The notes under the pieces: model-generated
What the model was told of the DNA's origin: nothing
Seen by the model: the letters and a program-made list of their open reading frames with translations, nothing else
The model's database searches: none
Sequence record: NC_070984.1
Strand: one strand, 5' to 3'
Source: Escherichia phage ES17
Length of the DNA: 64,000 nt
In this document: positions 30,201-54,568 of the stretch, one piece after another
Position numbering within the stretch: position 1 is the first letter of the stretch
Layout of the letters: each line of letters begins with the position of its first letter
Made by a program: the position numbers and the translations under genes

Positions 30201-30650
30201 TCAACTCTCTTCTAGTATAATCCTGTACATTGCTTCCTGAGCATCTTTCATATCTACATATGGACCAAGCACCTCACTATCTTTTCTGATGAACCAATCA
30301 CCTTCTTTGAATATCAGAGATACGTGAACATCTTTATTATTTGCTTTGACTGCTCGCCCCCATGCTGGGTTATGTCGGGATAAATTATCAATATGACAAT
30401 TATCAGTGCGCCCATCCAGATGGTGTAAATAAGATTGAGGCCACTGGCCTGTCTCTTTATACCATACGGCTTTCTTCAATTCAACAATGCCACATGGTAG
30501 TCCTATGTATAGGATATTAGGCTGTAAGCTAAAATTATACCACTTAGATGTGAAAGGGATTAGAGGTTCCCTTTTGGTGAAAAACATCGGCCCCTCTCGA
30601 ATGTATTCTAGACTATCTATACACTTCAAAATCTTTTCACTATAAAGCAT
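30201..30650 (-). CDS. HNH-family homing endonuclease-like protein
   Basis: HHLDGRTDNCHIDNL fits the HH.DG...N....NL HNH pattern. Confidence 0.5.
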   Translation of the reverse strand: MLYSEKILKCIDSLEYIREGPMFFTKREPLIPFTSKWYNFSLQPNILYIGLPCGIVELKKAVWYKETGQWPQSYLHHLDGRTDNCHIDNLSRHNPAWGRAVKANNKDVHVSLIFKEGDWFIRKDSEVLGPYVDMKDAQEAMYRIILEES

Positions 30651-32300: not shown

Positions 32301-32957
32301 TTAACTCTCCAAAGTTTTCTTCAGAGCTGCCCATGAGATTGGGTAGAGCTTAGCCATCTCTTCATCTACGGATTTAGCAAACACTCGAACTTCATATTGA
32401 GCGTGAGATGAGAGTCGCTGACGACACAACTCAAACCAGCCATACAAAGAACCAGTCCACACCCACTCAGTGATCATCCCCTGAGGAAGAACAAATCGAG
32501 CTTGCTCTGGTGCAATAAATTCAATCAACTTGTCATATGTTGCTAGAGAAGCTTCATATGCATCGTTAATTAACATTAATGCTTCAGCTCGCTCTCCGTC
32601 GATGAGTTGAATCCCTGAACCTGCATGGAGGTCCGAAGGTCTCGCAAAAATCTCTTTAGGGATGAAGACTTCAACTGCTCCATCTTTATACCGCCGGGAC
32701 ATTTCGTTCCACGAGAATCCAACCTGATGCTTGCCCAACTGTCTCGCAATTGCGATAGGTGCTTTGCATCGGAAACTGACTTGCGGGTGTCGGAATGGAG
32801 TACAGTGTTTTTCCCGTGCAAGGAAGTTGATAAGTTTTGTGTCTCTCTCATTTAAGTCACCTTCTCGAACAACACCGAAAGATACTCTAGCTGCATTGAC
32901 TACAGATTTGTCACTACCCATTGCTTCAATCAGTGTTGCTTGTAGTTGTTCGTTCAA
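32301..32957 (-). CDS. thyX: Flavin-dependent thymidylate synthase ThyX family, with altered RHR motif
   Basis: TPFRH..SFRCKAPIAIARQ ... SWNEMSRRY and EQARFVLPQG...AQYEVRV are ThyX-like; canonical RHR is KHQ here. Confidence 0.75.
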   Translation of the reverse strand: MNEQLQATLIEAMGSDKSVVNAARVSFGVVREGDLNERDTKLINFLAREKHCTPFRHPQVSFRCKAPIAIARQLGKHQVGFSWNEMSRRYKDGAVEVFIPKEIFARPSDLHAGSGIQLIDGERAEALMLINDAYEASLATYDKLIEFIAPEQARFVLPQGMITEWVWTGSLYGWFELCRQRLSSHAQYEVRVFAKSVDEEMAKLYPISWAALKKTLES

Positions 32958-33396
32958 TTAAAAGTTCCTTTTTTCGATTCATGTAAACTTGATGAGCTTC
33001 TTCGGCAGTTCCATACATACCTAGATGTATATCTACTTTATCAATACAAATAACAGCCCTATATCTAATAGTCCCTGATTTATATTTGACAACCTTAACA
33101 CCTTGAAGCCCTGTTTCCTTGTTTGATACCCTAGCCCCGAACTGGTTGTGGCAGTTTGTCGAGGTGTCCACCAATCTCAAGTTCTGTATTGAGTTGTTCT
33201 TCTTATTTCTATCGATATGGTCTATCTGAGAAGAAGGCCACTCTCCATAGTAAAAGAACCATGCCACTTTATGAGCTTTGTGTACTTTCCCTTTAAACCG
33301 CAGGGTTATGTACTTACTTCGAGTTCCTCCTAATTTCTTACCTTTTCGAAAGAACTCTCCAGTCTCAGGGATATACTCTAAATCATCGATTAACAT
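32926..33396 (-). CDS. HNH homing endonuclease with AP2-like DNA-binding domain
   Basis: QIDHIDRNKKNNSIQNL (HNH) plus YRAVICIDKVDIHLGMYGTAEEA (AP2-like). Confidence 0.75.
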   Translation of the reverse strand: MLIDDLEYIPETGEFFRKGKKLGGTRSKYITLRFKGKVHKAHKVAWFFYYGEWPSSQIDHIDRNKKNNSIQNLRLVDTSTNCHNQFGARVSNKETGLQGVKVVKYKSGTIRYRAVICIDKVDIHLGMYGTAEEAHQVYMNRKKELLIERTTTSNTD

Positions 33397-35754: not shown

Positions 35755-36264
35755 CTATCTTTCATCCACATTAAAGGATAGGTGAAGCCTACTTCTCATA
35801 GACTTCGCTAGGAGTTTTGCCTCTTCAAGAGTTTTCACTCCATATACAGACTCACGTTTACCATCTTTTTGAATAGATACACAGAATGTCCCGCCCTTCT
35901 CTTGGTAGACATTCTTAACTCCTAGTTTGTTATCAACCCTTGTCTTAGCATTCTGACTGTTCTCAGAGTGATAGCACTTTCTCAGGTTAGTTTCTTCTAG
36001 GTTTTCTCTGTTACCATCGGCATGATCTATTTGATATTCATCCGATAAATCCTCACCAGTATAAAGAACAAAAAGAATCCTATGATTGTGGACATGAACT
36101 CCTCCTAAGGGAATTTGATAATATCCATCTTTTGTGAGCTTGCCAGCAGGTTTACCTACTATATCATTAGCAAACTTACTAGGCTTCCTTTTCCAAGAAA
36201 GCCCTGAAGGTGATGACATGTCTATGTTAAAGAGATCAACTACTTCATCATAGCATATCAGCAT
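35755..36264 (-). CDS. HNH homing endonuclease with AP2-like domain
   Basis: YQIDHADGNRENLEETNL HNH motif; start placed at internal Met to avoid 128-nt overlap with dcd. Confidence 0.7.
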   Translation of the reverse strand: MLICYDEVVDLFNIDMSSPSGLSWKRKPSKFANDIVGKPAGKLTKDGYYQIPLGGVHVHNHRILFVLYTGEDLSDEYQIDHADGNRENLEETNLRKCYHSENSQNAKTRVDNKLGVKNVYQEKGGTFCVSIQKDGKRESVYGVKTLEEAKLLAKSMRSRLHLSFNVDER

Positions 36265-36802
36265 GATTTGTTCCACCAAAAGCTTTTGTTGGCCCTTGTT
36301 GGTTATTATATGAACCTTTCGTTGCGTAGCTGTCCTCTTCGGATGAAGAGTGTTTAAAGAATTCCATTTGACCAATACGCATTCCCGGTTTGATCAGCAG
36401 AGAGTGATGCTGTAGAACATTCTTGAATTCCATAGTTAACTGGCTACCATGCCAACCGCCGTCAGCATGACCAGCGTGCATGTGCTCTAAGAAACAACGA
36501 CCAACAGTGGACCGTAGCATGAAATCGCAGCTAATATTATCTGGCAGATTGAATGTCTCCATTGTATGAGCCAAGAAACACTCACCCGGTTTGATCACTA
36601 ACCCTTCCTCTGGAATCATAACCTCATTGAAGTTAGGAGATTCTTTAGCAGAGATATCAACAACCCCGTTAGCTGCACCTTCCATTAGAACGCGATCTCC
36701 AATACGAACATCAATGCTGGAGGAATTAACAGCTGAGTGTGGTGCATCAATAACACCATCATCAATTAATTTATGTAACTCTGGACTTCCTAGTAAACTC
36801 AT
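36248..36802 (-). CDS. dcd: dCTP deaminase (dUTPase superfamily)
   Basis: 184 aa; SSIDVRIGD ... GHADGGWHGSQLTMEF ... GMRIGQMEF matches Dcd pattern. Confidence 0.7.
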   Translation of the reverse strand: MSLLGSPELHKLIDDGVIDAPHSAVNSSSIDVRIGDRVLMEGAANGVVDISAKESPNFNEVMIPEEGLVIKPGECFLAHTMETFNLPDNISCDFMLRSTVGRCFLEHMHAGHADGGWHGSQLTMEFKNVLQHHSLLIKPGMRIGQMEFFKHSSSEEDSYATKGSYNNQQGPTKAFGGTNHADML

Positions 36803-38684: not shown

Positions 38685-40468
38685 GGTGAAGCTCCATCTG
38701 CTTGGTTGACGAGAGAAGCTGCATCCTCTCCGTTAGTTAAAACGAATGGATTATCTTCATCAACTTCAAAGTCTTCCCTTTCTACAAGTCTCCCGGTTTC
38801 ACTGATATACTTAGTATAGCAGACACCTGTCTGACCGTAGTTACGTTCTTTCAGTAATCGAATGACTGAGAGGTTCTTAGCTAAGCCATCAGCTTGCTTG
38901 TCACGCTCAAAGCCAATGATACACTGACACCAACGCATAAGAGAACGAGAGCCAGTGAACTGCACTTCACGTACCTGTCCACCTTCTTCATGAGGAGCAC
39001 CACCTGCCGGAGCATTAAGGTGAGATAGCACGAAAGCGGTAAAGTCTAATTCTTTGCACATACCAGCAAGCTCGGAAGCAATCTTACTGATTTCAGTGTT
39101 AATCTCTGAAGGTGTTAAATGGGACACCAGAGCGGTAATGTTATCAAGGATGATGAACTTACACTGGTTTTCAACTACCCAGAAACGGATACACTGTTTA
39201 ATGTCTTCCCATTCATTCTGTCCGAAGTTGTCATACAAGAAGAATTTGTCTGCATAACGAAGTGCTTCATTACGCAAATCCTCCTCATCATATTCAACAT
39301 CAGGTCGGTGGAAAGGAATTGATGCCGACTTACCAGCAATGTTCTTAACAGACATGCCTACCTTCTCTTCCAAGAAGAAGCCACCTCCATTAAAACCATG
39401 TTCTAAGCACAGATGAGCAACCAGCTCATGAGCAATGAGTGTTTTACCACTCCCTACTCCACCACCAATTGCTACCACCTCTCCCCATCGAATACCGAAG
39501 GTCATCTCATTCAGAGTCTTCCACGGATATGGGATACCCCACTCCGCTTTCTTCAGAGCATCATCAAGGCAATCAAAGATTGTTACAGCACCAGCAGGAG
39601 ATTCCCGCTTTGCTGAGTACTTGAGAATGTTGAATAACTCTTGACCACGACCAGACAGAAGCATGTCATTCGCATCCTTAATCTCTTTCTCCACACCGTT
39701 GTATGGGAAAGTTCCTTTAGGAATACGAGCAAACTTAACATGAGGGAATAAAGAACGACCTTTTGTTAAAGCTATCTCACCTGCATCATCGTTGTCCATG
39801 CAGAGCACAACCTCCTCAAAACCATTTACGAAGTCTCGATTACGAGACAACACAGAAGAGATTGAACCTGCACCGAACGGTAAAGAAACACATGCTGGTT
39901 TGATGTTTGTTGCATTTGTAAAAGCTGTAAGGACATGGAAACCTGACATACAGGATAGCGGGTCTTCAAAAATGAACAGCTTCTTGTTGTACACATCTCC
40001 ACGTTGAGCTTGTGCCATACCAAACAAATCTGCTTCTTTCACACTGCCGACGTAATAGAACTTCTTACTATCTAGCAGCTTAACCTCATAACCAACGATG
40101 TTTCCATCACGTTCACGAGGAAAGAAGTAGCTGTCTGGTGTCTGACCATCAGTTTGACTGAGACCAATACGACACTCAAACCGCTCTGATACAGCTTTAG
40201 GGATTAAACGGCGAGTGAGTTCACCCTGAGGAAGCTCTAAGCAATCATCTAAGACTTCTCTCAACTCTTCAGGGGATAACTCTTTCTTCTCGTTTGGAGT
40301 AGGTGTAGTGCCCTTTTCGAACACTTCGTAATTCCCACAACGGTTACAACTTCCCCACTCCTCACCAGTCTCTTCGTTACGGAAGAGAATCATGTGGTTG
40401 TGGGTTTTATCACGACCATGAGAGATACATTCCTTACAACCTGTGTCTCCCAAAATGATCTTTGACAT
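38678..40468 (-). CDS. Primase-helicase (T7 gp4-like)
   Basis: N-terminal zinc ribbon CKECISHG...CNRCG, TOPRIM region, helicase Walker [10 protein letters not shown]. Confidence 0.85.
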
Positions 40469-40494
40469 GCTCTTCCTCCTTGGAATCCTTGAGC

Positions 40495-40698
40495 TTAGTA
40501 GAACGAACGAATTTCATCCCACACTTGTTCCTGTTCTTTCCTATAAAAAGAAAGTTGGGTCTTGAACATCTCCACTGATGATTCAAAGTTTTTGGTTTGT
40601 GCAGCTTCAACGAAACGTTCATGTCGGTTGATTTTGCACCGTAGCATTAAATACTTGGCTTCAAGTCTCCGAAGAGCCTGCCTTTTCTCAAGATTCAC
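40495..40698 (-). CDS. Hypothetical protein
   Basis: 67 aa track ORF. Confidence 0.3.
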   Translation of the reverse strand: MNLEKRQALRRLEAKYLMLRCKINRHERFVEAAQTKNFESSVEMFKTQLSFYRKEQEQVWDEIRSFY

Positions 40699-41107
40699 TT
40701 TTCAGATACTCTGACCAGTCGCCAGATTCAACCAGAATATCTTGTTCTTCGTCGATATGATAAATCCAAGCGATAACAGTTTCACCTGAGTCCATCTTAA
40801 CAGCAATCTGAGTACGCTGATAGAAGCTGTCTTCAGGGCTACGTTTGTTGTAACCTTCCAGACGGTCATACGGACCTTCCAGACCTGCTTTGTCAGTAGC
40901 AAACACTTCTACACGAACAGGCTTATTGTTATTGCTGTGTGCGAGAGAGATGCTCGGGAAGTAGGAACCACCGTAACGGAACAGATCGAAGTTGTCTTCA
41001 GTCCAACCTTCACCAATTGACTTAGCACCAGCTCGGTCATTAACTAAATAGTTAGCTTGACCACGACGAAGAGAACCATAAGTTGCTACGTAAATTACTT
41101 CTGACAT
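40688..41107 (-). CDS. Gamma-glutamyl cyclotransferase-like (AIG2/GGCT fold) protein
   Basis: YVATYGSLRRGQANY N-terminal signature plus ...YDRLEGY...YQRTQIAV...VIAWIYH. Confidence 0.65.
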   Translation of the reverse strand: MSEVIYVATYGSLRRGQANYLVNDRAGAKSIGEGWTEDNFDLFRYGGSYFPSISLAHSNNNKPVRVEVFATDKAGLEGPYDRLEGYNKRSPEDSFYQRTQIAVKMDSGETVIAWIYHIDEEQDILVESGDWSEYLKSES

Positions 41108-41176
41108 TATCTATACCTTTGTTGGTTTGTTTAGTTTATCCGAACTAGCCTCATCTTTCGAAGAGGCTAAAGCAGA

Positions 41177-41362
41177 TTACTCTGTAATAAAGATTTTGAT
41201 TACACCGCAGATTGCTGCACTTTCAAACACTGCAACAGCTTCACTTCCTTGAAAGAAGGCCACTTTGCCATCAGAGAAGTTAAACATGTCAGCATCGAGG
41301 TCCATTGCTCGCATCTCACCAGCTGCATTGGTATCTTTAAACAGAACTTTATACTTATTCAC
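41177..41362 (-). CDS. Hypothetical protein
   Basis: 61 aa track ORF. Confidence 0.3.
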   Translation of the reverse strand: MNKYKVLFKDTNAAGEMRAMDLDADMFNFSDGKVAFFQGSEAVAVFESAAICGVIKIFITE

Positions 41363-41607
41363 AGATATGTTACTCCCTTGTCTTGTTGTGCTTCAGTGAT
41401 GATACGCTCTACACATTCCATAGAGTACTTATCACCACGTTTTAGGAAAGTTACAATTGCAGAGAATTGATTACCAATCATTCGCTGATTAGTAATACCC
41501 AACTCCTCACACAATTTACGCAACTCTTTACGAGAGCCTACAATAAGAGGCTCTTTTTGTTCCATCATTCCATTTTGTACTAGATCTTCCAATGAAAACA
41601 TATCCAT
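41359..41607 (-). CDS. Hypothetical protein
   Basis: 82 aa track ORF. Confidence 0.3.
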   Translation of the reverse strand: MDMFSLEDLVQNGMMEQKEPLIVGSRKELRKLCEELGITNQRMIGNQFSAIVTFLKRGDKYSMECVERIITEAQQDKGVTYL

Positions 41608-41613
41608 ATATCC

Positions 41614-42816
41614 TTAGTAGTTTACAACAGTGCCATCATTCAGGGTAAGGTTATTAATCTGCAACACACGACCAAGCTGACGATCACTAATTGGTGCGTT
41701 CCATCCAGAGCGGTAGAAGTTACGACCACAGAAGAACAAGATCACATTACTTGCTACAGTTGAACCATTTTCAGGATGCTTGATGTTAGCGATATAATAA
41801 CCACGACGCAGATTACGACGGGTTACAGGGTTGATCTCTAACCCTTGCTCTTCAACCTGCATTATTTCAGGGACAGGCTCCGAAGACTCTTCAACAACTG
41901 GCTCGGAGCTTTCCGCTGATAGTGCGTAATCCTCATCACCTGCTGGTGAAAATGTTTCTTCCACTTCTTCCACGGGAAGTTCGTATGCAACACGGTAGTC
42001 AGGCTCAACACCAGAGAAGCTCTTAACAAACTCAACGATGTTGTGAGTGTAGGTTTCCAGAGTTGTGCCAGTCAGGCCCGGAGCTGTATTAACTTCCAGA
42101 ACCCAAGCGTTAGTACCTTTGCTAATCAGGTCAACAGCACCGAAGTTCAAACCCAGAGCAGATACAGCTTTGTGAGCTTGAATCAGAACTTGATCAGGAG
42201 GCGCTTCAGTGAAGGAGTTAGAATAAACCCAACCAGTATGATGGTTACGAATATCTTCACGATAGCTTTCCAGTTCACGATAACCATTACGACGAATCTT
42301 CTTCTGAACGTAAGTGATAACACCTTCGAACACATGAACACGCCATTCACGACGTGGGCCTTGGATGCCTTTGGTGTACAGAGGAGCATCCGCAACACCT
42401 TCTCGCGGAAGACGAACAGTGATCCCCTCACCAGAGTGACCAGTCAAGGTTGCACGTTCATAAACAATTTCATTCCGGTTCCAGTTCTGAGCTACTTCAC
42501 GATCTACGGTGTATTCAACAGTTTTGACTTCAGCTAAACGCAGTGCGTTAAATGCTGCAACTTTGTTAGCGGCTCGGTTCAAGGCAACCACAGAGTTCAA
42601 TACAGTTGCACCGCCAAAGAAAGAATCATTATATCGACGGTTTCCGTAGTTGACAACAATATCACCAACTCGAGAACGATAACGAGAACCCTCTGATACC
42701 AGAGACATTACGTTAGCATTTAGTCGAAGTTCCTGAATCTTAGTGTTAATTGCAGAAGTAAGTTCACGAACTGAATCAGAAGGGCCATAAGGAAGAACAC
42801 GGATACGAGTAGTCAT
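41614..42816 (-). CDS. ATP-grasp enzyme
   Basis: C-terminal AVDLISKGTNAWVLEVNTAPGLTG matches ATP-grasp E-x-N Mg/ATP-binding motif. Confidence 0.6.
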   Translation of the reverse strand: MTTRIRVLPYGPSDSVRELTSAINTKIQELRLNANVMSLVSEGSRYRSRVGDIVVNYGNRRYNDSFFGGATVLNSVVALNRAANKVAAFNALRLAEVKTVEYTVDREVAQNWNRNEIVYERATLTGHSGEGITVRLPREGVADAPLYTKGIQGPRREWRVHVFEGVITYVQKKIRRNGYRELESYREDIRNHHTGWVYSNSFTEAPPDQVLIQAHKAVSALGLNFGAVDLISKGTNAWVLEVNTAPGLTGTTLETYTHNIVEFVKSFSGVEPDYRVAYELPVEEVEETFSPAGDEDYALSAESSEPVVEESSEPVPEIMQVEEQGLEINPVTRRNLRRGYYIANIKHPENGSTVASNVILFFCGRNFYRSGWNAPISDRQLGRVLQINNLTLNDGTVVNY

Positions 42817-42818
42817 TG

Positions 42819-43043
42819 TTAGATACCTTTAAGTTTAAGAATTTCGTTACGAGTTTTTTGAATCTGAGCTTCAATTTCGAAGTAGTCATTGAACGCATCG
42901 TTCTCTACTTCATCGGATGGTGCATCAATCAGACCGAAAGCGAACGGATACAGCTTTCGCTGCTCCGTTACCAATTCGATATGAACTCCTATGTAATACT
43001 GTAGGAGAGTAATCTTCGGTTTCTTAGGAACCAGATTTGACAT
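42819..43043 (-). CDS. Hypothetical protein
   Basis: 74 aa track ORF inside operon. Confidence 0.3.
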   Translation of the reverse strand: MSNLVPKKPKITLLQYYIGVHIELVTEQRKLYPFAFGLIDAPSDEVENDAFNDYFEIEAQIQKTRNEILKLKGI

Positions 43044-43257
43044 GAGGTTCTACCTTAATGCCTTTGATTTTTACATAATCAGCAAGCACGTTGTTGATCA
43101 CCGTTGGGAAAGGAACCTCAACCTGTGTTTCAAGTACTTGACCAATACCAGCTTGCATCCACTTCTGGATTGCACGAAGGTTATCACATCCTGTGCTCGT
43201 CATCGGGATACGTCGAGTAGTTACAACGTTATCCAGCATCATCTTACGAATTTCCAT
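43024..43257 (-). CDS. Hypothetical protein
   Basis: 77 aa track ORF inside operon. Confidence 0.3.
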   Translation of the reverse strand: MEIRKMMLDNVVTTRRIPMTSTGCDNLRAIQKWMQAGIGQVLETQVEVPFPTVINNVLADYVKIKGIKVEPHVKSGS

Positions 43258-43259
43258 AC

Positions 43260-45290
43260 TTAACCTCTATTCAATGAACATTTAGGAGAATTACAATAAA
43301 CTTGATTCATAGAACCAAGCGTACAACTTTCAGCATCGCGCCACGGAATCTGCTTAAAACACTCTGAGCAGTATCCGAGGGTTGACCACATTGCTTTGGT
43401 GAAGTCAGTGCTTCGGTTTCCGTCGAAGCTGACGACAGTTTTGCGGAGAGCTGTTCGTGATTCAGGAAACACACCTGCTTTCTCAGCAGGTTCCTCCTTT
43501 TTTGGCTTAGTTGAGATTGCAAAAATACTGTTGCTACGTTTCTCAACATAAGCATCAACAACATCCTCCAGAGTGATGCCTGTCTGTTTCGCTGAGGAAG
43601 GTAATACAGTCATACGACCGATCATATCTTCAGTTACACGTAAAGCGAATTCAGGACGACGGGCGTTTGTTGTATCTGTTGCTTTAATCCAGACATAACC
43701 ATCTTTGATCGTAGCATTAGACACTTTCTTCTTTACTTCTACAGCGCAGACTTTACAGATATCTTCACCACGAAGACGACTAAGTTCATCATCGAACTCA
43801 TTCTCTGTTTTAACTTCACCGCAGATTTCACAAACACCAATAGGAGTTTCCTCCTCTTCTTCCTCTTTAGGTTTAGTCAAACCTTCCAGACATTCAGGAT
43901 GCCAATAGCACTGATATGCGAAGACTGCTTTAGGTGCATCCTTCCAATCAATGTGCTTATCACAACCACCACAATCACCATGAGAGTGCGCTTCCCAGAA
44001 TTTACGAGTGATAGTAACACCATTCTTGTTGACGAAACTATCATTCATATCAAAAGGGATATCATCATCGAAGTCAGCAGTAGTTGACTCAGGCTCCTTT
44101 TTCTCCAGAGATGGGTCAACAAAACGACCTGCTGTGATCACTAAACGGACCATAGCATTGACTTCGGAGATGCAGGATACTGTCCCACGGTAAACAATTT
44201 TAGGGTCTTTCAGGGCATCCTGATAAGCCTTAATGTCTACGTTATGAACATCACCTTCGATATACTCTTGAGATTTCTCATCGTAGATATAACCAATCAT
44301 CTTACCACGAGAAGGAACAGCACCGGCAGTTGCATAAGGAACAAACTCATGCGGAGTGATTTCCACAGTCATATCGCGGCGAATATCAATGTTTCGATCG
44401 CTTGCGATTTTGTTTTGACTTACCACTGCGTTTCTTCGACGAACGTCTGCCGCTGTCACACCCGGCTTCGTGTCGTAAGGATTGCTTGTACTGCTTTTTG
44501 AGGAACTTTGATAGTTGCTTTGGCTGTAATTGTTCGAGTAGTAATTGCCCCAACGATTGACTACCGTAAAAACCGGAAGCTCGTGGGCGACCTCTTCAAC
44601 CAGTGTCATGCTGTTATTAGACATGTCAAAGATATACTCTGTACCAACTTTACACTCAAAATGCTCATCAATACGGTTCTTGTGAGACTTCGAACGCTTC
44701 AGAATCCACATCAGCATATCTTCTTCAGAAGCGCCAAACCAATCTCTGTTACAACGTGCGAGATGGAAAGGACGCTCTTCGTTACGAATGATATGAAGGC
44801 GGTTATCAGAAGCATCATGCCAGATTAAGGTGAAAGCACCATCCAGCTTTTGAATAGTCTCTGCTGCACCAATAGTGTTAATAGAGTGGCAGATGTTCTC
44901 ACTATCTACCTCGAAGTTTTTACTGTCAGGTAACAGGTCTTGGTCCATCAAGGTTCCATTATGAACCAGAGTGATGTTACCATGTTGGAAAGGATGGGCG
45001 TTCTTGGCGTTAACTGCACCTTTCGTTGCATGACGGCTGTGACCAACAATCCATGAAGGTGCTACAGTGTAAGCTGTTTCACCAGTGGTGTGCTTCTTGT
45101 ACTCATCTTGTAGGATGAATGCGAAAGAAGGAAGAGCTTCTTTATAAGTGAAGACTTCCTTAGTACTTTTACGCTGACCAAAGATACCGGAGGAATGTTG
45201 TCCTCGGAATACTCCAGCATAAAAGAGTTGGTTAAATACGTCTAAATCAGTGCTTGACAGATTACCGCCAGCTAATACGATGCCACAAAT
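43260..45290 (-). CDS. Class-II (Ntn) glutamine amidotransferase domain fused to Cys-rich C-terminal region; apparent ATT initiation
   Basis: Frame open 113 codons upstream of track start; begins ATT-TGT: (I)CGIVLAGG, VFRGQHSSGIFG, VGHSRHATKG..NAHPF, LVHNGTL are GAT-II hallmarks; C-terminus has 4 CxxC pairs. Confidence 0.75.
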   Translation of the reverse strand: MCGIVLAGGNLSSTDLDVFNQLFYAGVFRGQHSSGIFGQRKSTKEVFTYKEALPSFAFILQDEYKKHTTGETAYTVAPSWIVGHSRHATKGAVNAKNAHPFQHGNITLVHNGTLMDQDLLPDSKNFEVDSENICHSINTIGAAETIQKLDGAFTLIWHDASDNRLHIIRNEERPFHLARCNRDWFGASEEDMLMWILKRSKSHKNRIDEHFECKVGTEYIFDMSNNSMTLVEEVAHELPVFTVVNRWGNYYSNNYSQSNYQSSSKSSTSNPYDTKPGVTAADVRRRNAVVSQNKIASDRNIDIRRDMTVEITPHEFVPYATAGAVPSRGKMIGYIYDEKSQEYIEGDVHNVDIKAYQDALKDPKIVYRGTVSCISEVNAMVRLVITAGRFVDPSLEKKEPESTTADFDDDIPFDMNDSFVNKNGVTITRKFWEAHSHGDCGGCDKHIDWKDAPKAVFAYQCYWHPECLEGLTKPKEEEEEETPIGVCEICGEVKTENEFDDELSRLRGEDICKVCAVEVKKKVSNATIKDGYVWIKATDTTNARRPEFALRVTEDMIGRMTVLPSSAKQTGITLEDVVDAYVEKRSNSIFAISTKPKKEEPAEKAGVFPESRTALRKTVVSFDGNRSTDFTKAMWSTLGYCSECFKQIPWRDAESCTLGSMNQVYCNSPKCSLNRG

Positions 45291-45293
45291 TTT

Positions 45294-45323
45294 CTAATCC
45301 ACCTGAAGGGTAAACCCTTTCAT
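45294..45323 (-). other. 9-codon upstream mini-ORF (MKGFTLQVD) ending 3 nt before GAT-II ATT codon
   Basis: ATG 45323 with AAAGG RBS; in-frame TAG at 45294-45296, then AAA, then ATT-TGT. Confidence 0.35.
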
Positions 45324-45369
45324 CTAATTAACCTTTAAATTGTGCCCCTTTATCAGAGGCACCCATTGA

Positions 45370-46473
45370 TTACAGCGCTTGCTCTAACTGATTTTCCAGA
45401 TGGTCTGGAATGTACCCTGTGATATTGCTATCACTGTGACCTGACTCACGTAGTAAGTCAAAAATAGCACGGATACGCTGTTCTGGAGCGTGTCTTACTT
45501 GAGATAGGTCTGCTGTACGAAGCATAACCAAAATCTCTTGGTACAAGTTGTTAGCGTTCCCTCGGACATACCCAAGGAAGCCATAGAAGTCTGACATAAG
45601 ACGTAAGTCAACAAGAGCCTCTCCGTTGGAGTTGGTTCGACGTAAACGAATACGACCAGACTGTTCTACTTCATGAGAACGGCAATACAAAACATCACGG
45701 GCCATACAATATCCTGAATGCAAATCAGATTCATCCAGATTGTAATCCAGAGGAAGGTAAGGAAGCATTGGGGCAAATCGTACAGTATTTAAGTGCTCAA
45801 TAAACTGATCATTGCTCATATCTGCGTTATCTAAAGCCAGCTTCTTCAACATCAAGAAGCGGTTAACCAGATTGAGAAGTTGACCACGTTTCCACTTAGG
45901 CTCACTGATACGGAACTCAATTGAACCGTATTGGGCAAGTGGCAGAAGGTTCAGAGATGTATATTTATCCCATGAACGAACCAGACGGTTGAAGAATTCT
46001 TCACCATCGTAGTTAAATGCGTCAGAGGCATTCATTACCTGTGCTTGTACCACTGCAAACGCAGGGCAGAAATTGCTACGGTAACGATGGTAGCCTGAAC
46101 ACTTGAACAGCATCTTTTCATAGAAGGTCCAAGCAAGGATGGTCTTCTTGAGGATATTACTATCAGCATCCCTCATATCCATATGAACGTGAGTAGAGCA
46201 ACGCCAAGTCCCCTCGGCGTGCGATTCAGCTACTGCTTCACTCAGGTTGTTGATAGCGTCTAACAACTCCTGTCCGTTGTAAGGTCGTGAACATACCATT
46301 TCACAACCGTTACGCAGGGAACCATCCTCTGTGCAATCCCACATATCTGCTTCGATATGTTCAGAACCTTCGAGTTCAAGTTCAATACCGACACCGCACT
46401 GAAGTGCAATTGAACTATGCGCCTCAGTTAAACGACCTTCTCGATATCCAAAAGTTTGCGCTACAGTTGTCAT
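45370..46473 (-). CDS. Glutamine-synthetase/GCS2-like amidoligase (carboxylate-amine ligase)
   Basis: GIELELEG, EDGSLRNGCE, THVHMD, GSIEFR motif series. Confidence 0.5.
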   Translation of the reverse strand: MTTVAQTFGYREGRLTEAHSSIALQCGVGIELELEGSEHIEADMWDCTEDGSLRNGCEMVCSRPYNGQELLDAINNLSEAVAESHAEGTWRCSTHVHMDMRDADSNILKKTILAWTFYEKMLFKCSGYHRYRSNFCPAFAVVQAQVMNASDAFNYDGEEFFNRLVRSWDKYTSLNLLPLAQYGSIEFRISEPKWKRGQLLNLVNRFLMLKKLALDNADMSNDQFIEHLNTVRFAPMLPYLPLDYNLDESDLHSGYCMARDVLYCRSHEVEQSGRIRLRRTNSNGEALVDLRLMSDFYGFLGYVRGNANNLYQEILVMLRTADLSQVRHAPEQRIRAIFDLLRESGHSDSNITGYIPDHLENQLEQAL

Positions 46474-47087
46474 AACGAATCCACCAACGTAATATTATAA
46501 TTGCTAAGGTTTTCAGAGATGTGATGAAAATGCTCCAGAAGTCGCATCGGTTGTTGACCATAAGAGTCACGAGGTGCTTCCAGATCTACCTGACCTACCA
46601 GTGCACCTTTATAATGCACTTTACCATCTGTAGGATTGATGTAAATATAACGAGTAACCAATCCATCAAATTCAGGATTGAACAGACTGTAAACCATTTC
46701 ACCAGAGATCGAACGACCAATTCCAGGAGCGTTTCGAATCTTGTTACCCATCAAACCCTTCGCTCTCTGACGAACAGGGTTGATATGAGTCCAGCTTACA
46801 GTGTTACCGTTATGGAACAGATAACCAACATCAGGTGATTCAAGAATCAAGGTTGGGTCGAACACTGGAATATTCATCGTAGTGTTTCGGAGATTCCCAT
46901 GCTCGTTCTTGTACCACTGCTCTACAACAAAATACAGAGCCTGTTCTGCTTCATGCGAGAAGTCATCGCTGCGGAAGTTACCGCTCTGCTCAACACCAAT
47001 CACAAAACACGGAAGGTTGATATTGCCTGCTCGTTTAGCAATCCATGTACCATTATAGTAATGAGAAAAATCAGCTACTAAGCTCAC
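46470..47087 (-). CDS. Hypothetical protein in amidoligase operon
   Basis: 205 aa; start overlaps upstream stop. Confidence 0.35.
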   Translation of the reverse strand: MSLVADFSHYYNGTWIAKRAGNINLPCFVIGVEQSGNFRSDDFSHEAEQALYFVVEQWYKNEHGNLRNTTMNIPVFDPTLILESPDVGYLFHNGNTVSWTHINPVRQRAKGLMGNKIRNAPGIGRSISGEMVYSLFNPEFDGLVTRYIYINPTDGKVHYKGALVGQVDLEAPRDSYGQQPMRLLEHFHHISENLSNYNITLVDSL

Positions 47088-47096
47088 GATAACCTC

Positions 47097-47903
47097 TTAT
47101 GCTACCTGAAGGAGTTTGATCTGCTGGTCAGCTTCTTTAACGTTGTTCCCGTTAATGATTTCATGAAGCTTCTCAATCGGAAGGCGAGAGTGCAATGCCA
47201 TCAGGGTGGACATATCACACTGCTGAACAACCTTGTCAACCTGATCGTAAACAAACTTACGGTTTTCACGATCACTAATCCAGAAGTTAGACAGAGAACG
47301 GTATTCAATACCATAGTCTTTATAACGGATTGCAGATGCTTTACCGTAGAGTTCTTTACGGCGAGTATCTTTGTCCATAATTACTGCTGGGAGAGACAGG
47401 AAGTAGTCACACAACACACCCAGCATCATCTGAGTTTGCAGAGTGATATCCAAAGCACCAACTACGCCAAGATGTACGTGACCACCGGCAGTACGAAGTC
47501 CCTTATTCTGAGAAGTCGGGGATGGGTTTTTCTGACCAGTGAAGGCGTTGAAATCAGGAGTGCACCCGAAGATGAACGCTGATTCATTAAAGGTCTTCAT
47601 TTCTTCTTCGGTGAAGATGTGAGAGCTAACACCCGGAGCTGTTTCCATGTCCAGTTTGTTCAGGACATTATTGGTAAGATCGATACCACGTTGCATGTTA
47701 TCGTTAAACGCTTCAAAACCGCTCTGTGGGTCGATATCAAACTCAGCCAGTACGTTGTCCTCTTGAAGACGAACATCTTTAGCCAGAGTGATCTTATCGT
47801 CCTTAGAACAGCCTAATAGACCAGCTACAGAGGTGATGATACCATTACTGGTACGAACGAACATTTCAGGGTCAGAGCCGATAAGGAATTTGCGCTTAGT
47901 CAT
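47097..47903 (-). CDS. Second GS-like amidoligase (COOH-NH2 ligase type)
   Basis: IGSDPEMF, AEFDIDP, TAGGHVHLG, GIEYRS motif series. Confidence 0.45.
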   Translation of the reverse strand: MTKRKFLIGSDPEMFVRTSNGIITSVAGLLGCSKDDKITLAKDVRLQEDNVLAEFDIDPQSGFEAFNDNMQRGIDLTNNVLNKLDMETAPGVSSHIFTEEEMKTFNESAFIFGCTPDFNAFTGQKNPSPTSQNKGLRTAGGHVHLGVVGALDITLQTQMMLGVLCDYFLSLPAVIMDKDTRRKELYGKASAIRYKDYGIEYRSLSNFWISDRENRKFVYDQVDKVVQQCDMSTLMALHSRLPIEKLHEIINGNNVKEADQQIKLLQVA

Positions 47904-48867
47904 TGTAATACTCCACTAGTTCAGAAAAGAGAGATGAGATTGTGTTACCAACTTCTTCAGGAGTAAGACCGGAATCTTCTCCAGTTCTTTGAATCAGTCG
48001 GGCTATAAAGTTTTGTACTGTAATGTTTCCCAACTTGTCGTCTATGGTTTCACGTTTATGACCATGACAAGTGGACCAGAGTCTTAGCCACTCTGACATT
48101 GTTGCATATTCAGCTGGGTCTTGATCTTTAGCAAGAGCAAATCTTCGTAAGGTCTCTGGGTTATGGTTACGAACATAGCCGTTCTCATTGTAACCAACAC
48201 CAAAAGGGTTTTGAACCCATACTTGATTCGTGTATTCATCAGAGTCTACAACCAAAGGAAGGAATGCTGATGCTGGCATATTGTAGTTAATAACAATAGA
48301 TGTGCTCTCACTGCTCCCATTGGATCTTCCTTGTTGAGTCCACCCTCCAAAGAAGTCACGACCCAACCCAGCTAACACTAGAGCGATGCCGATGCGTTTA
48401 CGCTTCAGCCACTCTTCCCTGTCTTCAATTCCTTCTGCTAGGAAATCCATTCCACGATACTGCCCTTCCAGAATGCTACGGAAGAGCATAAGTCCTGTGA
48501 AGATCTGATCTGCTGGATGCTCACGAAGGTTGACAGCAACACTATTCGCTGAAGTGATCGTAAATACGTCACGATAGCAAGACATGGAGTTCATAATGTC
48601 TGCTGTTTCAACTAAGTTCTTTTCGATATCAGATGTAACATGACCGTGAAAAGAGTGAGTCCAGTAATTCAACATCTCCAGTTGCAAGTTGATATCACGG
48701 TTGAAGCTACGATAGCGCCCTTCTTCCGTGATAACTTCACCATTAATGTCATTTACCCACTGGCCTTGCATGTGGTTGTGGATACCGAAGCACCCACGAC
48801 CTAAGAACTTCTGTTCCCCTAAATCCTGTTGAAGATTCAGAGGTACGATCGTTGTGGAGATTGACAT
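47896..48867 (-). CDS. Hypothetical protein in amidoligase operon
   Basis: 323 aa, overlaps neighbours by 8 nt. Confidence 0.35.
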   Translation of the reverse strand: MSISTTIVPLNLQQDLGEQKFLGRGCFGIHNHMQGQWVNDINGEVITEEGRYRSFNRDINLQLEMLNYWTHSFHGHVTSDIEKNLVETADIMNSMSCYRDVFTITSANSVAVNLREHPADQIFTGLMLFRSILEGQYRGMDFLAEGIEDREEWLKRKRIGIALVLAGLGRDFFGGWTQQGRSNGSSESTSIVINYNMPASAFLPLVVDSDEYTNQVWVQNPFGVGYNENGYVRNHNPETLRRFALAKDQDPAEYATMSEWLRLWSTCHGHKRETIDDKLGNITVQNFIARLIQRTGEDSGLTPEEVGNTISSLFSELVEYYND

Positions 48868-48877
48868 AACTAACCTT

Positions 48878-50077
48878 TTATTTTCCTAAAAATAATCCGC
48901 TCATAACACCATCCCACTCAGAGGATGGAATCACTGAATACTCCGAACTTTGGTCCAGAGTCCCACTACTAAATCGCTGAATAATGTTGTAGATGTTGAA
49001 CAGGTCTTTAGCCTCGGCACGAATGCCGTAGATTAACCTGTTAGCTGTTCTCTCATTTTTAGACACGCGACGGGTAAAGTTAATCAGAAGGTTGTCACAT
49101 TTCAGGATTTCCGATTCACTCTCTACTAAGTCGGGGTGCATCACCGGCAAGAACATCGAGTTATTAACTCGTAATTCTGCTGTTTCATCATTCTCATAAT
49201 GAATCCACTTAAAATCTTCATCACGGAAATGACCGCATCCATCCCTATACGACTGTTGACGCCAAGGCACTTGAAATGCTTCAGCATATTTATCAGCCAT
49301 ACCAACTGTAAACAGTGACGCTGGGAAGATACAAGCATCCCAATCATTACCGACCAGAGTTGCTTTCGTTTCGCCCAAGAGGTTGGTGTAGGTGCTAACC
49401 ATTCGTGAGTAAACGTAAGCCTGAAGGATTGTCCAGCCTTCAACCAACCATTTATGAAGGAAGGTTTCCACTTGGCTCTCTTCATCTTCACAATAGAAGG
49501 TTCGGTCTAACATCAAATAGAACAGACAACGATCAGCAGGGATATTCTCAGTTGCTACCCCCATAAAACCTTTATCGTGCCAGCGTAAACAGGAGGGACG
49601 ATCTTTGTCCACAAATGCTTCCATAGCTTCCAGTACAGCACGAGGTGTGGTTCGATGCTCAGGGTTTTTGTCGTTCCAACGTTCGATGTTGTTCTTAGGT
49701 GGCGTGTCTTCATCTTCATACGAACACCAACTTAAAGCTTCAGCTACATGCTTTTCATCACGCCAACGTCTAAAACCTAACATCTTCATATGAGTTCCAG
49801 AGTTCCAGATATGCTTGATTTTACACATATCCATCTCTCGGCTTAACAGGAACTCTTCCCCATCAGCACTACGAACGTTAGCTTCTTCATGCCACACTCG
49901 AACGTGCATATTCCATCCATGAGTTGCCTCATACATGTTAGGGTCGAAGTAGTCATCGTACTCTTCATCGTCTTCATCAACGCCACCGTTATAGTTGCGA
50001 AGCTGAAGGAACCCATAACAAGGAGGGTTGACTGTTAAAACATTACCTTCAGTATCTTCTAATGTTACTGGAAACAT
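48878..50077 (-). CDS. Hypothetical protein in amidoligase operon
   Basis: 399 aa track ORF. Confidence 0.35.
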   Translation of the reverse strand: MFPVTLEDTEGNVLTVNPPCYGFLQLRNYNGGVDEDDEEYDDYFDPNMYEATHGWNMHVRVWHEEANVRSADGEEFLLSREMDMCKIKHIWNSGTHMKMLGFRRWRDEKHVAEALSWCSYEDEDTPPKNNIERWNDKNPEHRTTPRAVLEAMEAFVDKDRPSCLRWHDKGFMGVATENIPADRCLFYLMLDRTFYCEDEESQVETFLHKWLVEGWTILQAYVYSRMVSTYTNLLGETKATLVGNDWDACIFPASLFTVGMADKYAEAFQVPWRQQSYRDGCGHFRDEDFKWIHYENDETAELRVNNSMFLPVMHPDLVESESEILKCDNLLINFTRRVSKNERTANRLIYGIRAEAKDLFNIYNIIQRFSSGTLDQSSEYSVIPSSEWDGVMSGLFLGK

Positions 50078-50088
50078 TATACCAACCT

Positions 50089-50451
50089 CTATTGGTTTTT
50101 AATCAACTCAATCGACTTACGAATATAAAGAATATCTCGGAAGTTTCGATAGTTGTTCATAAATTGATGCTTCTGGAACTCAGCTTCTTCCAGAGCTTTC
50201 TTTGCTTCTGCGTAGTTTTTACGGGCAAGATGTACAACCCGCTCCGGTAACACGTTTGCACGATGGATTAGATACTTATGAGCTTTCATGTTACTTTGCT
50301 CACGAGCAATCTTACCTTTAGCAACCTTGATACCATTTGCAATCCAAGCAAGTTCTTGCTCAAGCTCTTCGTTGGACATACCACCGAGGTTTGATGCAAC
50401 CTTGTTCAGAGTTTCAATATTAACGTTGCCCTTGATGGGACGTGTATTCAT
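50089..50451 (-). CDS. Hypothetical protein
   Basis: 120 aa, Lys/Glu-rich helical. Confidence 0.35.
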   Translation of the reverse strand: MNTRPIKGNVNIETLNKVASNLGGMSNEELEQELAWIANGIKVAKGKIAREQSNMKAHKYLIHRANVLPERVVHLARKNYAEAKKALEEAEFQKHQFMNNYRNFRDILYIRKSIELIKNQ

Positions 50452-50453
50452 AC

Positions 50454-50606
50454 TTACTCCTGTTGTTTACACTCGTCAATAACCCACTGATAAGTGGATT
50501 GCCCAGAAAAGAAACACTGAATAAATCCAGATGTTCTCTGCGTTACCAGTGCTAGTGCACAAATCACTACCGCTGCTGCTAGCAGTTTTAAATCTAATTT
50601 AGACAT
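50454..50606 (-). CDS. Small signal-peptide protein (50 aa), not in ORF track
   Basis: RBS GAGAGGAAAT-ATG; MSKLDLKLLAAAVVICALALV...; stop 3 nt before next ATG. Confidence 0.35.
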   Translation of the reverse strand: MSKLDLKLLAAAVVICALALVTQRTSGFIQCFFSGQSTYQWVIDECKQQE

Positions 50607-50625
50607 ATTTCCTCTCGTTGAATTT

Positions 50626-50650
50626 AAAAAAGGACTCTCCGAAAAGAGTC
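50626..50650 (-). terminator. Intrinsic terminator
   Basis: Minus-sense GACUCU-UUUCGG-AGAGUC + CUUUUUU. Confidence 0.6.
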
Positions 50651-50715
50651 AAGCTTTAAATACAAAAAGATATTACCCAATATCTGTGGATAACCTGCTC
50701 TTAAAATATCTATCC

Positions 50716-50833
50716 GACGGATGTTCGAGGAATGTTCCTCTCCCTAGCATCGGCCCCATACGGGAAATATATTAAGATTAGGTTAGTTGAGTCAGAATAA
50801 CTCACATAGCCCTCCGAAGAAGGCTATAGGCGT
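50716..50833. repeat. Conserved intergenic element, copy 1
   Basis: Shares GGATGTTCGAG ... CTCTCCCTAGC ... CATA ... ATTAA ... CTCACATAGCCCT ... GGCTATA with copy at 55697-55806. Confidence 0.6.
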
Positions 50834-50841
50834 TACTACAA

Positions 50842-51057
50842 CTAAAAATCACTTGATTTTACAAAATCATCACTAAGGATTTCGTCAATTTCTTTGTTAG
50901 TCAAGTCTTTCCTGAACCAACAACAAGGTACATCCACCCATTGACCAGAGTTGTTTTCTACAGAGCATCTATTGCCTGTCTTACTCTTGCACTTATAGGT
51001 CTTACCTTTGTCTAGACGGTAGTGTATTCTGTAAACGATCGACACAAGTGTTATCAT
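50842..51057 (-). CDS. Cys-rich small protein
   Basis: CKSKTGNRCS ... VPCCW. Confidence 0.35.
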   Translation of the reverse strand: MITLVSIVYRIHYRLDKGKTYKCKSKTGNRCSVENNSGQWVDVPCCWFRKDLTNKEIDEILSDDFVKSSDF

Positions 51058-54491: not shown

Positions 54492-54568
54492 TGGCGCACC
54501 CTACAGGATTCGAACCTGTAACCGACGGATTAGAAATCCGATGTTCTGTCCAATTGAACTAAGGGCGC
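54492..54568 (-). tRNA. tRNA-Arg(UCU): tRNA-Arg (anticodon UCU), CCA encoded
   Basis: Manual cloverleaf: acceptor GCGCCCU/AGGGUGC (one G-U), D stem GUUC/GAAC, anticodon loop UUUCUAA, T arm ACAGG-UUCGAAU-CCUGU, discriminator G + CCA. Confidence 0.85.

Follow-up and report, generated by a model that had tools for sequence, protein, structure and literature searches.

The phiEco32-type amidoligase cassette of Escherichia phage ES17 and its predicted gamma-glutamyl chemistry

Since 2009, a block of genes that combines two amidoligases with an ATP-grasp ligase, a class-II glutamine amidotransferase (GAT) and a gamma-glutamyl cyclotransferase (GGCT) has been described repeatedly in phages, and the DNA considered here, 64,000 nucleotides (nt) of Escherichia phage ES17 (NC_070984.1; this whole stretch is "the window" below), carries it at positions 40688-50451: it is the phiEco32 cassette in another Kuravirus isolate. 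The prediction of this gene set goes back to Iyer et al. (2009, Mol Biosyst) and Hardies et al. (2013, J Virol, phage RIO-1), and was relayed in later work (PMC5498523, PMC6256558, PMC10580990, PMC11945000); a computational prediction of such phage clusters, mentioned without details in a first reading made from the sequence letters (hereafter the original prediction), thus does exist. Duhaime et al. described the module as conserved in RIO-1, phiEco32, 7-11, PA11, tf, MR299-2, LUZ24, PaP3 and CW02, with the same five enzyme families listed for phiEco32, 7-11, LUZ24, PaP3, tf, PA11, RIO-1 and CW02, and relayed the hypothesis that it alters the cell surface and stops superinfection (PMC5498523), an account repeated in the PhiM6 genome announcement (PMC6256558). 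A 2025 paper on a LUZ24-like phage still speaks of a "putative peptidoglycan modification module" and adds the idea of a wall weakened ahead of lysis (PMC11945000), and other citations mention cell-wall modification or secondary-metabolite synthesis (PMC10580990, PMC11706807, PMC11318856). More than 15 years after the cassette was first predicted, we found in the searchable full-text literature no experiment identifying its product, substrate or phenotype, in line with the original prediction. Our additions are modest: a seven-gene core, a rare ATT start that gives the amidotransferase a first-position cysteine (Cys1), a conserved intergenic element, and sequence grounds for looking beyond peptidoglycan.

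The ES17 locus shows essentially no difference from that of phiEco32 (NC_010324), after which family PF14395 is named: nucleotide identity is 95.4% across 100% of the region, the annotation is colinear, and the genes are orthologous one for one, in the same order, to phi32_77 through phi32_89 (phiEco32 gp77-gp89, whose numbers are used below). More than 60 Escherichia/Shigella Kuravirus (Gordonclarkvirinae) records match the full region at 95-96.6% nucleotide identity. The interval contains 14 minus-strand genes (open reading frames, ORFs), densely packed in the same orientation with junctions of 4-20 nt overlap or 2-11 nt gap, much as the original prediction had described, two gaps of 69 and 79 nt excepted. 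The four ORFs that it had left uncharacterised exist, but five further small ORFs (61-82 amino acids, aa) among the enzymes had been missed. Altogether the cassette occupies ~10 kb, or ~13% of a 77-kb genome, and is laid out as follows (KBNP1711, here and below, is a phage of a different genus that served as reference for amino acid identity and for the ratio of non-synonymous to synonymous substitutions, dN/dS):

40688..41107, minus strand: predicted GGCT/AIG2-like gamma-glutamyl cyclotransferase, gp77 ortholog, 139 aa (PF06094, phrog_2520)
41177..41362, minus strand: small ORF, gp78 ortholog, 61 aa (annotated in phiEco32)
41359..41607, minus strand: small ORF, gp79 ortholog, 82 aa (phrog_8339)
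41614..42816, minus strand: RimK-like ATP-grasp ligase, gp80 ortholog, 400 aa (RimK-structure profile match)
42819..43043, minus strand: small ORF, gp81 ortholog, 74 aa (annotated in phiEco32)
43024..43257, minus strand: DUF7195 small protein, gp82 ortholog, 77 aa (Pfam)
43260..45290, minus strand: class-II N-terminal nucleophile (Ntn) glutamine amidotransferase, gp83 ortholog, 676 aa, ATT start (GATase_6)
45291..45369, minus strand: conserved intergenic element, 79 nt (near-identity to KBNP1711)
45370..46473, minus strand: Amidoligase_2-family carboxylate-amine ligase, gp84 ortholog, 367 aa (PF12224)
46470..47087, minus strand: gp85-family protein, 205 aa (homologs between amidoligases)
47097..47903, minus strand: COOH-NH2 ligase type 2, "phage phiEco32-like", gp86 ortholog, 268 aa (PF14395)
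47896..48867, minus strand: gp87-family protein, 323 aa (hhalign to marine upstream-ORF family)
48878..50077, minus strand: gp88, probable gp87 paralog, 399 aa (hhalign)
50089..50451, minus strand: gp89, basic, 120 aa (phrog_11370)

These genes are real and under purifying selection, since dN/dS is low (0.09-0.26 for the enzymes, gp85, gp89, gp82 and gp79) and the gene set recurs in the same order across unrelated phage groups. Using local profiles, we surveyed 72 IMG/VR loci, each with a relative of the COOH-NH2 ligase; 43 of them had enough flanking sequence to be compared. Amidoligase_2, GAT and ATP-grasp each stood next to the COOH-NH2 ligase in all 43, with GGCT found in 34 and the gp85-family protein in 33; all cassette matches of a locus lay on one strand, and the order COOH-NH2 ligase, gp85, Amidoligase_2, GAT, ATP-grasp, GGCT was kept in 29, ATP-grasp and GGCT being neighbours in most cassettes. 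The same enzyme set occurs in LUZ24 (Bruynoghevirus), SE131 (Grimontviridae), LAh_8 (Lahexavirus) and a Zobellviridae Vibrio phage. We define the cassette core as seven genes, namely gp87, COOH-NH2 ligase, gp85, Amidoligase_2, GAT, ATP-grasp and GGCT, spanning 40688-48867 in ES17. With carriers among the phages of E. coli, Pseudomonas, Salmonella, Aeromonas and Vibrio, and among many marine phage contigs, the cassette ranks with the most widely conserved auxiliary enzyme blocks of podoviruses.

The cassette is an early-region gene block and looks co-transcribed. Directly downstream lie genes for a primase/helicase, a DNA polymerase exonuclease subunit and a nucleotidyltransferase, and in phage SU10 the ATP-grasp, GAT and GGCT proteins were seen by mass spectrometry and classed as early gene products (PMC4281155), an observation that speaks to expression only, because the sample was a lysate precipitated with polyethylene glycol and not purified virions. 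No export signal, signal-like or transmembrane-like segment was found in any cassette enzyme and no peptidoglycan-related domain in any cassette protein, and all of these proteins are predicted to be cytoplasmic.

Profile searches, the check that the original prediction had proposed, placed the enzymes in the expected families rather than in unrelated ones. The GGCT-like protein, gp77, carries the motifs YGSLRRG and RLEGY and matches PF06094 (GGACT) at E 3.6e-17 (63.5 bits vs. a cut-off of 22.8) and phrog_2520 at E 9e-45, as expected of a GGCT/AIG2-like cyclotransferase. For the ATP-grasp enzyme, gp80 (motif VLEVNTAPG), a five-sequence family profile matched the RimK structures 5zct and 4iwx over residues 47-251 (205 residues, E ~1e-6; best match 5zct, E 8.6e-7), NCBIfam returned MptN (5e-7) and the RimK family (1.6e-6), and the invariant residues D229, E241 and N243 fit the Mg-binding DxxxE-x-N pattern. 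The RimK/MptN/CofF ligases are thereby its nearest solved or curated relatives and share this motif, but unlike them gp80 scores just 20-31 bits against equivalog cut-offs of 331-350, and nothing supports ribosomal protein S6 as its substrate. The RefSeq name "ribosomal protein S6 glutaminyl transferase" is an unsupported over-annotation, because the score against the RimK equivalog is tiny relative to its cut-off (NF007764, 20.5 bits vs. 331; similarly TIGR00768, 27.7 vs. 143). The Kuravirus enzyme is also longer (400 aa vs. ~280-295 in LUZ24 and Vibrio phages) through a lineage-specific C-terminal extension, of which residues 319-400 match phrog_20552; the 82-position profile of this family spans that segment alone, which suggests that other phages encode it as an ORF of its own.

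The motifs that had marked two further genes as ligases are present in both. The first, gp84 (GIELELEG, HVHMD, EFR), matches PF12224 (33.7 bits vs. a cut-off of 22), has a dN/dS of 0.14, and keeps E31/E33/E35, D50-R54, H95/H97/D99 and E186-R188 invariant in six phages. The second, gp86 (IGSDPEMF, GGHVHLG, EYR), matches PF14395 (34.1 bits vs. a cut-off of 25) and phrog_3815 (E 3e-118), is 39-49% identical to its LUZ24, SE131 and LAh_8 orthologs, and combines the lowest dN/dS (0.09) with invariant D11/E13, E48-N50, H142/H144 and E200-R202. An hhalign comparison gave no alignment between the two families, and ricin-lectin PDB matches of their profiles were spurious, involving a W-x-x-x-DGS-R motif only. 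In SE131 (locus L003, 8509-10212) and LAh_8 (locus L004, 8479-9819), Amidoligase_2 is extended at its N-terminus by ~165 aa that the Kuravirus and LUZ24 proteins lack, and its gene overlaps the gp85-family gene.

The class-II GAT fused to a multi-CxxC domain, also foreseen by the original prediction, was recovered with a corrected start. The ORF lister gave this gene only as a 563-aa ORF from an internal TTG at 44951, a fragment that would be without the catalytic N-terminus. The gene proper is 43260-45290 (676 aa), opening with ATT-TGT at 45290-45285 to give (M)CGIVLAGG, with Cys directly after the initiator Met; aligned to phiEco32 it is colinear with phi32_83 and free of frameshifts. Of 67 GAT homologs, 60 have Cys as the codon next to the start (ATG in 54, ATT in six), the six ATT starts belonging to Gordonclarkvirinae and to one unrelated IMG/VR contig (L025, ATT-Cys). 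Public records nevertheless include truncated versions lacking Cys1, among them SU10 (63.8 kDa product) and KBNP1711 (627-aa coding sequence). At full length, the protein matches GATase_6 (PF13522) with 55 bits against a cut-off of 27; C1, R28, R85, N110-G111 and D128 are invariant across three phage groups, and the glutamine-binding R85, the oxyanion pair N110-G111 and D128, the Asp that contacts the alpha-amine, align to GlmS R73, N98-G99 and D123, so that the glutamine or gamma-glutamyl binding site is, by this comparison, intact.

The predicted domains are an Ntn amidotransferase (residues ~1-235), a low-complexity linker, a beta-rich middle and three Zn-ribbon-like CxxC pairs. Most marine contigs encode a GAT of 371-390 aa, and relative to these the Kuravirus protein has a lineage-specific C-terminal extension; minimal marine versions are without the Zn ribbon. 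A profile search against the GlmS N-terminal domain gave 3.7e-11, yet Pfam detected no SIS domain and the GlmS equivalog TIGR01135 scored 35.8 bits against a cut-off of 418, with only the N-terminal glutaminase domain covered. On these two grounds the RefSeq/PHROG name "L-glutamine-D-fructose-6-phosphate aminotransferase" is an over-annotation. The C-terminal 440 residues matched no known synthase domain in Pfam or NCBIfam, and the neighbouring amidoligases are, by gene linkage only, candidate partners that would accept its ammonia. The KBNP1711 record places a GlmS-like name on its Amidoligase_2 gene instead, and GlmS- and RimK-type product names are spread across RefSeq/PHROG annotations of the cassette (NC_010324, NC_027395 and others).

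Upstream of the GAT, the intergenic stretch 45291-45369 contains a hairpin past the amidoligase stop, a second hairpin, and a Shine-Dalgarno sequence (GGTGGA) before the ATT start. Positions 45343-45284 are 97-100% identical to KBNP1711, against 55-80% for the flanking coding DNA, where dS exceeds 1.4; the fold z-score is only -1.8. This stretch is probably a regulatory element controlling amidotransferase expression. Directly after the GAT gene lies gp82 (DUF7195, E 4.7e-17; dN/dS 0.17), which has an ortholog in the same position in SE131 (E 3.8e-15) and whose family is present in 13 of the 72 IMG/VR loci.

Besides the enzymes, the conserved core of the cassette includes gp85 and gp87, the latter with a probable paralog, gp88. 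The gp85 family, with homologs such as LUZ24 gp17, SE131 gp120 and LAh8_2, is compact (~200 aa, 33 representative clusters among 1.84 billion proteins) and is always located between the two amidoligases; its N-terminus is strongly conserved, D6, Y10, K110-G111 and G165 are invariant, and dN/dS is 0.23. The gp87 family (~300 aa; invariant C26-F27, L126, R130 and Y231) is always directly upstream of the COOH-NH2 ligase, and a non-circular hhalign comparison of enteric gp87 orthologs with the marine upstream-ORF family gave Prob 94.9% and E 4.6e-8. A comparison of gp88 with the gp87 core (Prob 75.9%, E 2.3e-5, 139 columns) points to a probable paralog, confined to Gordonclarkvirinae (by tblastn, only 96 Escherichia/Shigella phage records); SE131 and LAh_8 hold comparable duplicate pairs, and LUZ24 gp14 and gp15, by position the counterparts of gp88 and gp87, showed no link to the gp87 family by hhalign. 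With amino acid identities of 49% (gp87) and 48% (gp88), vs. 69-80% for the enzymes, both evolve much faster than the rest of the cassette. Weak phmmer matches had raised the idea that gp87 and gp88 are divergent COOH-NH2 ligase paralogs, which hhalign ruled out (Prob 0.1%). The gp85, gp87 and gp88 families were unmatched in Pfam, NCBIfam, PADLOC and PDB sequences, profiles of gp85 (34 sequences) and gp87 (18 sequences) found nothing credible among Pfam and PDB sequences, and single-sequence structure models of cassette proteins had pLDDT values of 32.6 and 37.0, too low for a fold search.

Three families of ATP-dependent carboxylate-amine ligase, one Ntn class-II GAT and one GGCT are thus inherited as a unit. 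We think it fairly probable that this phiEco32-type cassette serves the cytoplasmic, ATP-dependent building and trimming of a gamma-glutamyl-type amide or short peptide on an acceptor. The original prediction of an operon of amide-bond-forming enzymes directed at such a peptide or adduct is supported to this extent, and each of its family assignments held. In this scheme, the two ligases of the predicted glutamine synthetase/gamma-glutamylcysteine synthetase (GS/GCS) type and the ATP-grasp enzyme would each turn a carboxylate into an acyl-phosphate and couple it to an amine. The GAT would have one of two roles, delivery of ammonia from glutamine so that an activated carboxylate is amidated, or hydrolysis of a gamma-glutamyl amide in the manner of EgtC and PuuD. 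The GGCT would release, as 5-oxoproline, a gamma-glutamyl group whose alpha-amine is free, in which case the gamma-glutamyl moiety would be a transient handle or protecting group. Since two of the five enzymes would recognise an L-gamma-glutamyl amide with a free alpha-amine, and ligases of GS/GCS type typically form such bonds, we infer a build-and-trim pathway, in which the gamma-glutamyl group may characterise the product or serve as a handle for a time; the Puu, EgtA/EgtC and butirosin BtrJ/BtrG systems offer parallels. Here gp85 and the fast-evolving gp87/88 could act as scaffold, substrate or specificity factors. The acceptor suggested in the literature, a peptidoglycan precursor, is one possibility and is not established.

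In the Puu, Ipu and aniline (Atd) pathways, a GS-like gamma-glutamyl-amine synthetase is paired with a GATase-like hydrolase, the gamma-glutamyl group serving as a temporary handle. The phage cassette would likewise join a putative GS-superfamily ligase to an enzyme of amidotransferase fold, but the hydrolases of those pathways are class-I (triad) GATases and the phage GAT is class-II Ntn, and the cassette lacks oxidoreductases and adds two ligases, a GGCT and two unassigned proteins. In mycobacterial ergothioneine synthesis, the GCS-type EgtA adds a gamma-glutamyl group that the class-II Ntn EgtC removes; the phage GAT has a weak EgtC match (TIGR03442, E 2.5e-4, 20 bits vs. a cut-off of 219), but it bears a large extra C-terminal region, and homologs of EgtB, EgtD and EgtE are absent from the cassette. 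In butirosin synthesis, the ATP-grasp enzyme BtrJ installs a gamma-glutamyl protecting group and the GGCT BtrG removes it as 5-oxoproline, a pairing that recalls the adjacent ATP-grasp and GGCT genes of most phage cassettes, although these come without the acyl carrier protein, pyridoxal-phosphate-dependent decarboxylase and acyltransferase of that pathway.

Several points weigh against building and trimming of a gamma-glutamyl amide as set out above. We infer each chemical step from family membership, and the sequence does not distinguish a GAT that donates ammonia from one that hydrolyses. The ATP-grasp enzyme scores under every curated family cut-off, single-sequence Pfam models included, so that its substrate class is not fixed by sequence. 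Neither amidoligase family has a credible PDB relative by sequence or profile search; the ligase assignments made in the original prediction stand for both, and their GS-like fold rests on Pfam and the published classification. Finally, GGCT was absent within the fetched range in nine of the 43 loci, and trimming by GGCT may therefore not be essential, though in SE131 the GGCT gene lies ~4 kb from the rest of the cassette and GGCT encoded elsewhere is thus possible in the GGCT-less loci.

Among the alternatives, remodelling of a peptidoglycan precursor (UDP-MurNAc-peptide or lipid II) survives best, although we consider it unlikely. The ligases would make the unusual linkages of the stem peptide or amidate its carboxylates, the GAT and GGCT would degrade or trim, and the altered wall would block superinfection or ready the cell for lysis. 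Glutamine-dependent amidation of stem-peptide carboxylates is indeed known: in MurT/GatD and AsnB/LtsA, a carboxylate activated by an ATP-dependent ligase is amidated, and these would be the model for the phage cassette if the peptidoglycan hypothesis is right. However, the Mur-ligase fold of MurT, the class-I GATase of GatD and the fused asparagine-synthetase domain of AsnB are all absent from the cassette, as are peptidoglycan-binding domains, export signals and membrane segments. D-Ala-D-Ala ligases do figure among the nearest solved relatives of the ATP-grasp enzyme, but its best matches are the alpha-L-glutamate ligases of RimK/MptN type and not Ddl. From their enzymology, GGCT and Ntn-GAT would also need a gamma-glutamyl group with a free alpha-amine, and the D-isoglutamate of the stem peptide is N-acylated. 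The published proposal (Iyer et al., 2009; Hardies et al., 2013), as relayed since (PMC5498523, PMC6256558, PMC11945000), thus has to be set against these features, against an early cassette embedded in a replication module, and against the amidoligase and GATase genes reported in viruses assigned to Poseidoniales, archaea that have no peptidoglycan (PMC11706807).

Somewhat less likely again, in our estimate, is that the cassette has no cell-wall role and instead decorates a macromolecule with a peptide adduct of gamma-glutamyl type, the macromolecule being a protein of the host or the phage or, with lower probability, a nucleic acid, with gp85 as scaffold or substrate and gp87/88 as target-specificity factors. 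If true, this would be a viral post-translational tagging pathway common to at least five podovirus lineages.

Its more specific form, which we find doubtful, is protein tagging akin to pupylation or to the action of RimK, where a phage or host protein would receive glutamate or a short gamma-glutamyl peptide at a lysine or at its C-terminus. The part of substrate or tag would fall to gp85, which has an invariant Lys-Gly, or to one of the small ORFs nearby, and that of target adaptor to gp87/88. GS-fold ligases tag proteins in pupylation, and RimK, to which the nearest solved relatives of the ATP-grasp enzyme belong, glutamylates a protein C-terminus; however, none of the cassette proteins has a PafA/Dop Pfam match. 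A compact, strictly co-located gp85 with invariant K110-G111 and a conserved N-terminus would suit a tag, but no Pup-like or ubiquitin-like tag was recognised, and the C-termini of the small ORFs are without GGQ, GGE or an acidic tail. Similarly, the divergence of gp87/88 (48-49% identity vs. ~69-80% for the enzymes) fits a specificity or arms-race role, and Zn-ribbon and beta-rich domains such as those of the GAT are typical of macromolecule binding, but the minimal marine GATs do without the Zn ribbon. Peptide modification of proteins is the theme of the title and abstract of Iyer et al. (2009); proteomic evidence of modified proteins is, to our knowledge, nowhere on record.

Modification of DNA or nucleotides with an amino-acid-derived base adduct, which would explain the restriction-modification (RM) resistance of Gordonclarkvirinae, is highly improbable, the evidence against it being stronger than that for it. 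The cassette does adjoin genes for a primase/helicase and for an exonuclease or polymerase in Kuravirus, LUZ24 and Zobellviridae, the BASEL study reports marked RM resistance without a known modification pathway (PMC11990801), and EcoRV (34), EcoKI (6) and EcoP1I (102) sites are not depleted in the window. Conversely, of 16 restriction enzymes applied to genomic DNA of the Bruynoghevirus U17, a carrier of this module, 11 cut it (PMC11945000), and the 64-kb window strongly avoids 6-bp palindromes (614 observed vs. 1074 expected) and CCWGG (14 vs. 145), a signature of DNA exposed to restriction. The cluster contains no hydroxymethylase, kinase, glycosylase-like transferase or DNA-binding enzyme domain, its Pfam/NCBIfam matches include no aGPT-Pplase, DpdA or similar hypermodification gene, and the genomes of these phages sequence routinely. 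The phage also encodes ThyX and a dCTP deaminase, which fits an ordinary dTTP supply, and ThyX further speaks against the suggestion in the BASEL paper that deoxyuridine replaces deoxythymidine. These two genes lie on the minus strand at 32301-32957 (ThyX, E 4e-43) and 36248-36802 (dCTP deaminase-like, E 4.5e-32). Over the whole window (1-64000), nine 6-bp palindromes are absent altogether and GATC occurs 136 times against 237 expected.

Several carriers (LUZ24-like phages, Kuraviruses) are candidates for phage therapy, which makes an unexplained five-enzyme pathway that they express early a gap that matters. The function of the cassette is now open to direct testing, since some Kuraviruses (BASEL Bas86-93) form plaques on engineered E. 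coli K-12. A GAT cloned from the ATT start will keep Cys1, and, given the predicted gamma-glutamyl chemistry, soluble metabolites and protein adducts deserve attention alongside muropeptides.

The remaining ORFs of the interval are less clearly part of the system. Membership of gp78 is doubtful, as this protein is weakly conserved (33% amino acid identity, dN/dS 0.54), and gp81 has a dN/dS of 0.41. Conservation is higher for gp79 (dN/dS 0.16), which is specific to the Kuravirus lineage, and for gp89 (88% identity, dN/dS 0.13), which is conserved within the lineage; no gp89 counterpart was found in LUZ24, SE131 or LAh_8, and its membership is uncertain. Nine cassette proteins had no match to PADLOC defence-system models at E <= 0.01, sigma-70 promoter matches across the region were at chance level (20 vs. 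20.4 expected), and Rfam gave zero matches in 40000-51000. Elsewhere in the window, a single tRNA gene, tRNA-Arg(TCT), lies on the minus strand at 54492-54568, and three HNH_3 homing-endonuclease-like ORFs (35755-36375, 32926-33396 and 30201-30650, all minus strand) are distributed across the replication and nucleotide-metabolism region, one of them splitting a ferritin-like fragment, probably of the ribonucleotide reductase small subunit, from its neighbours.

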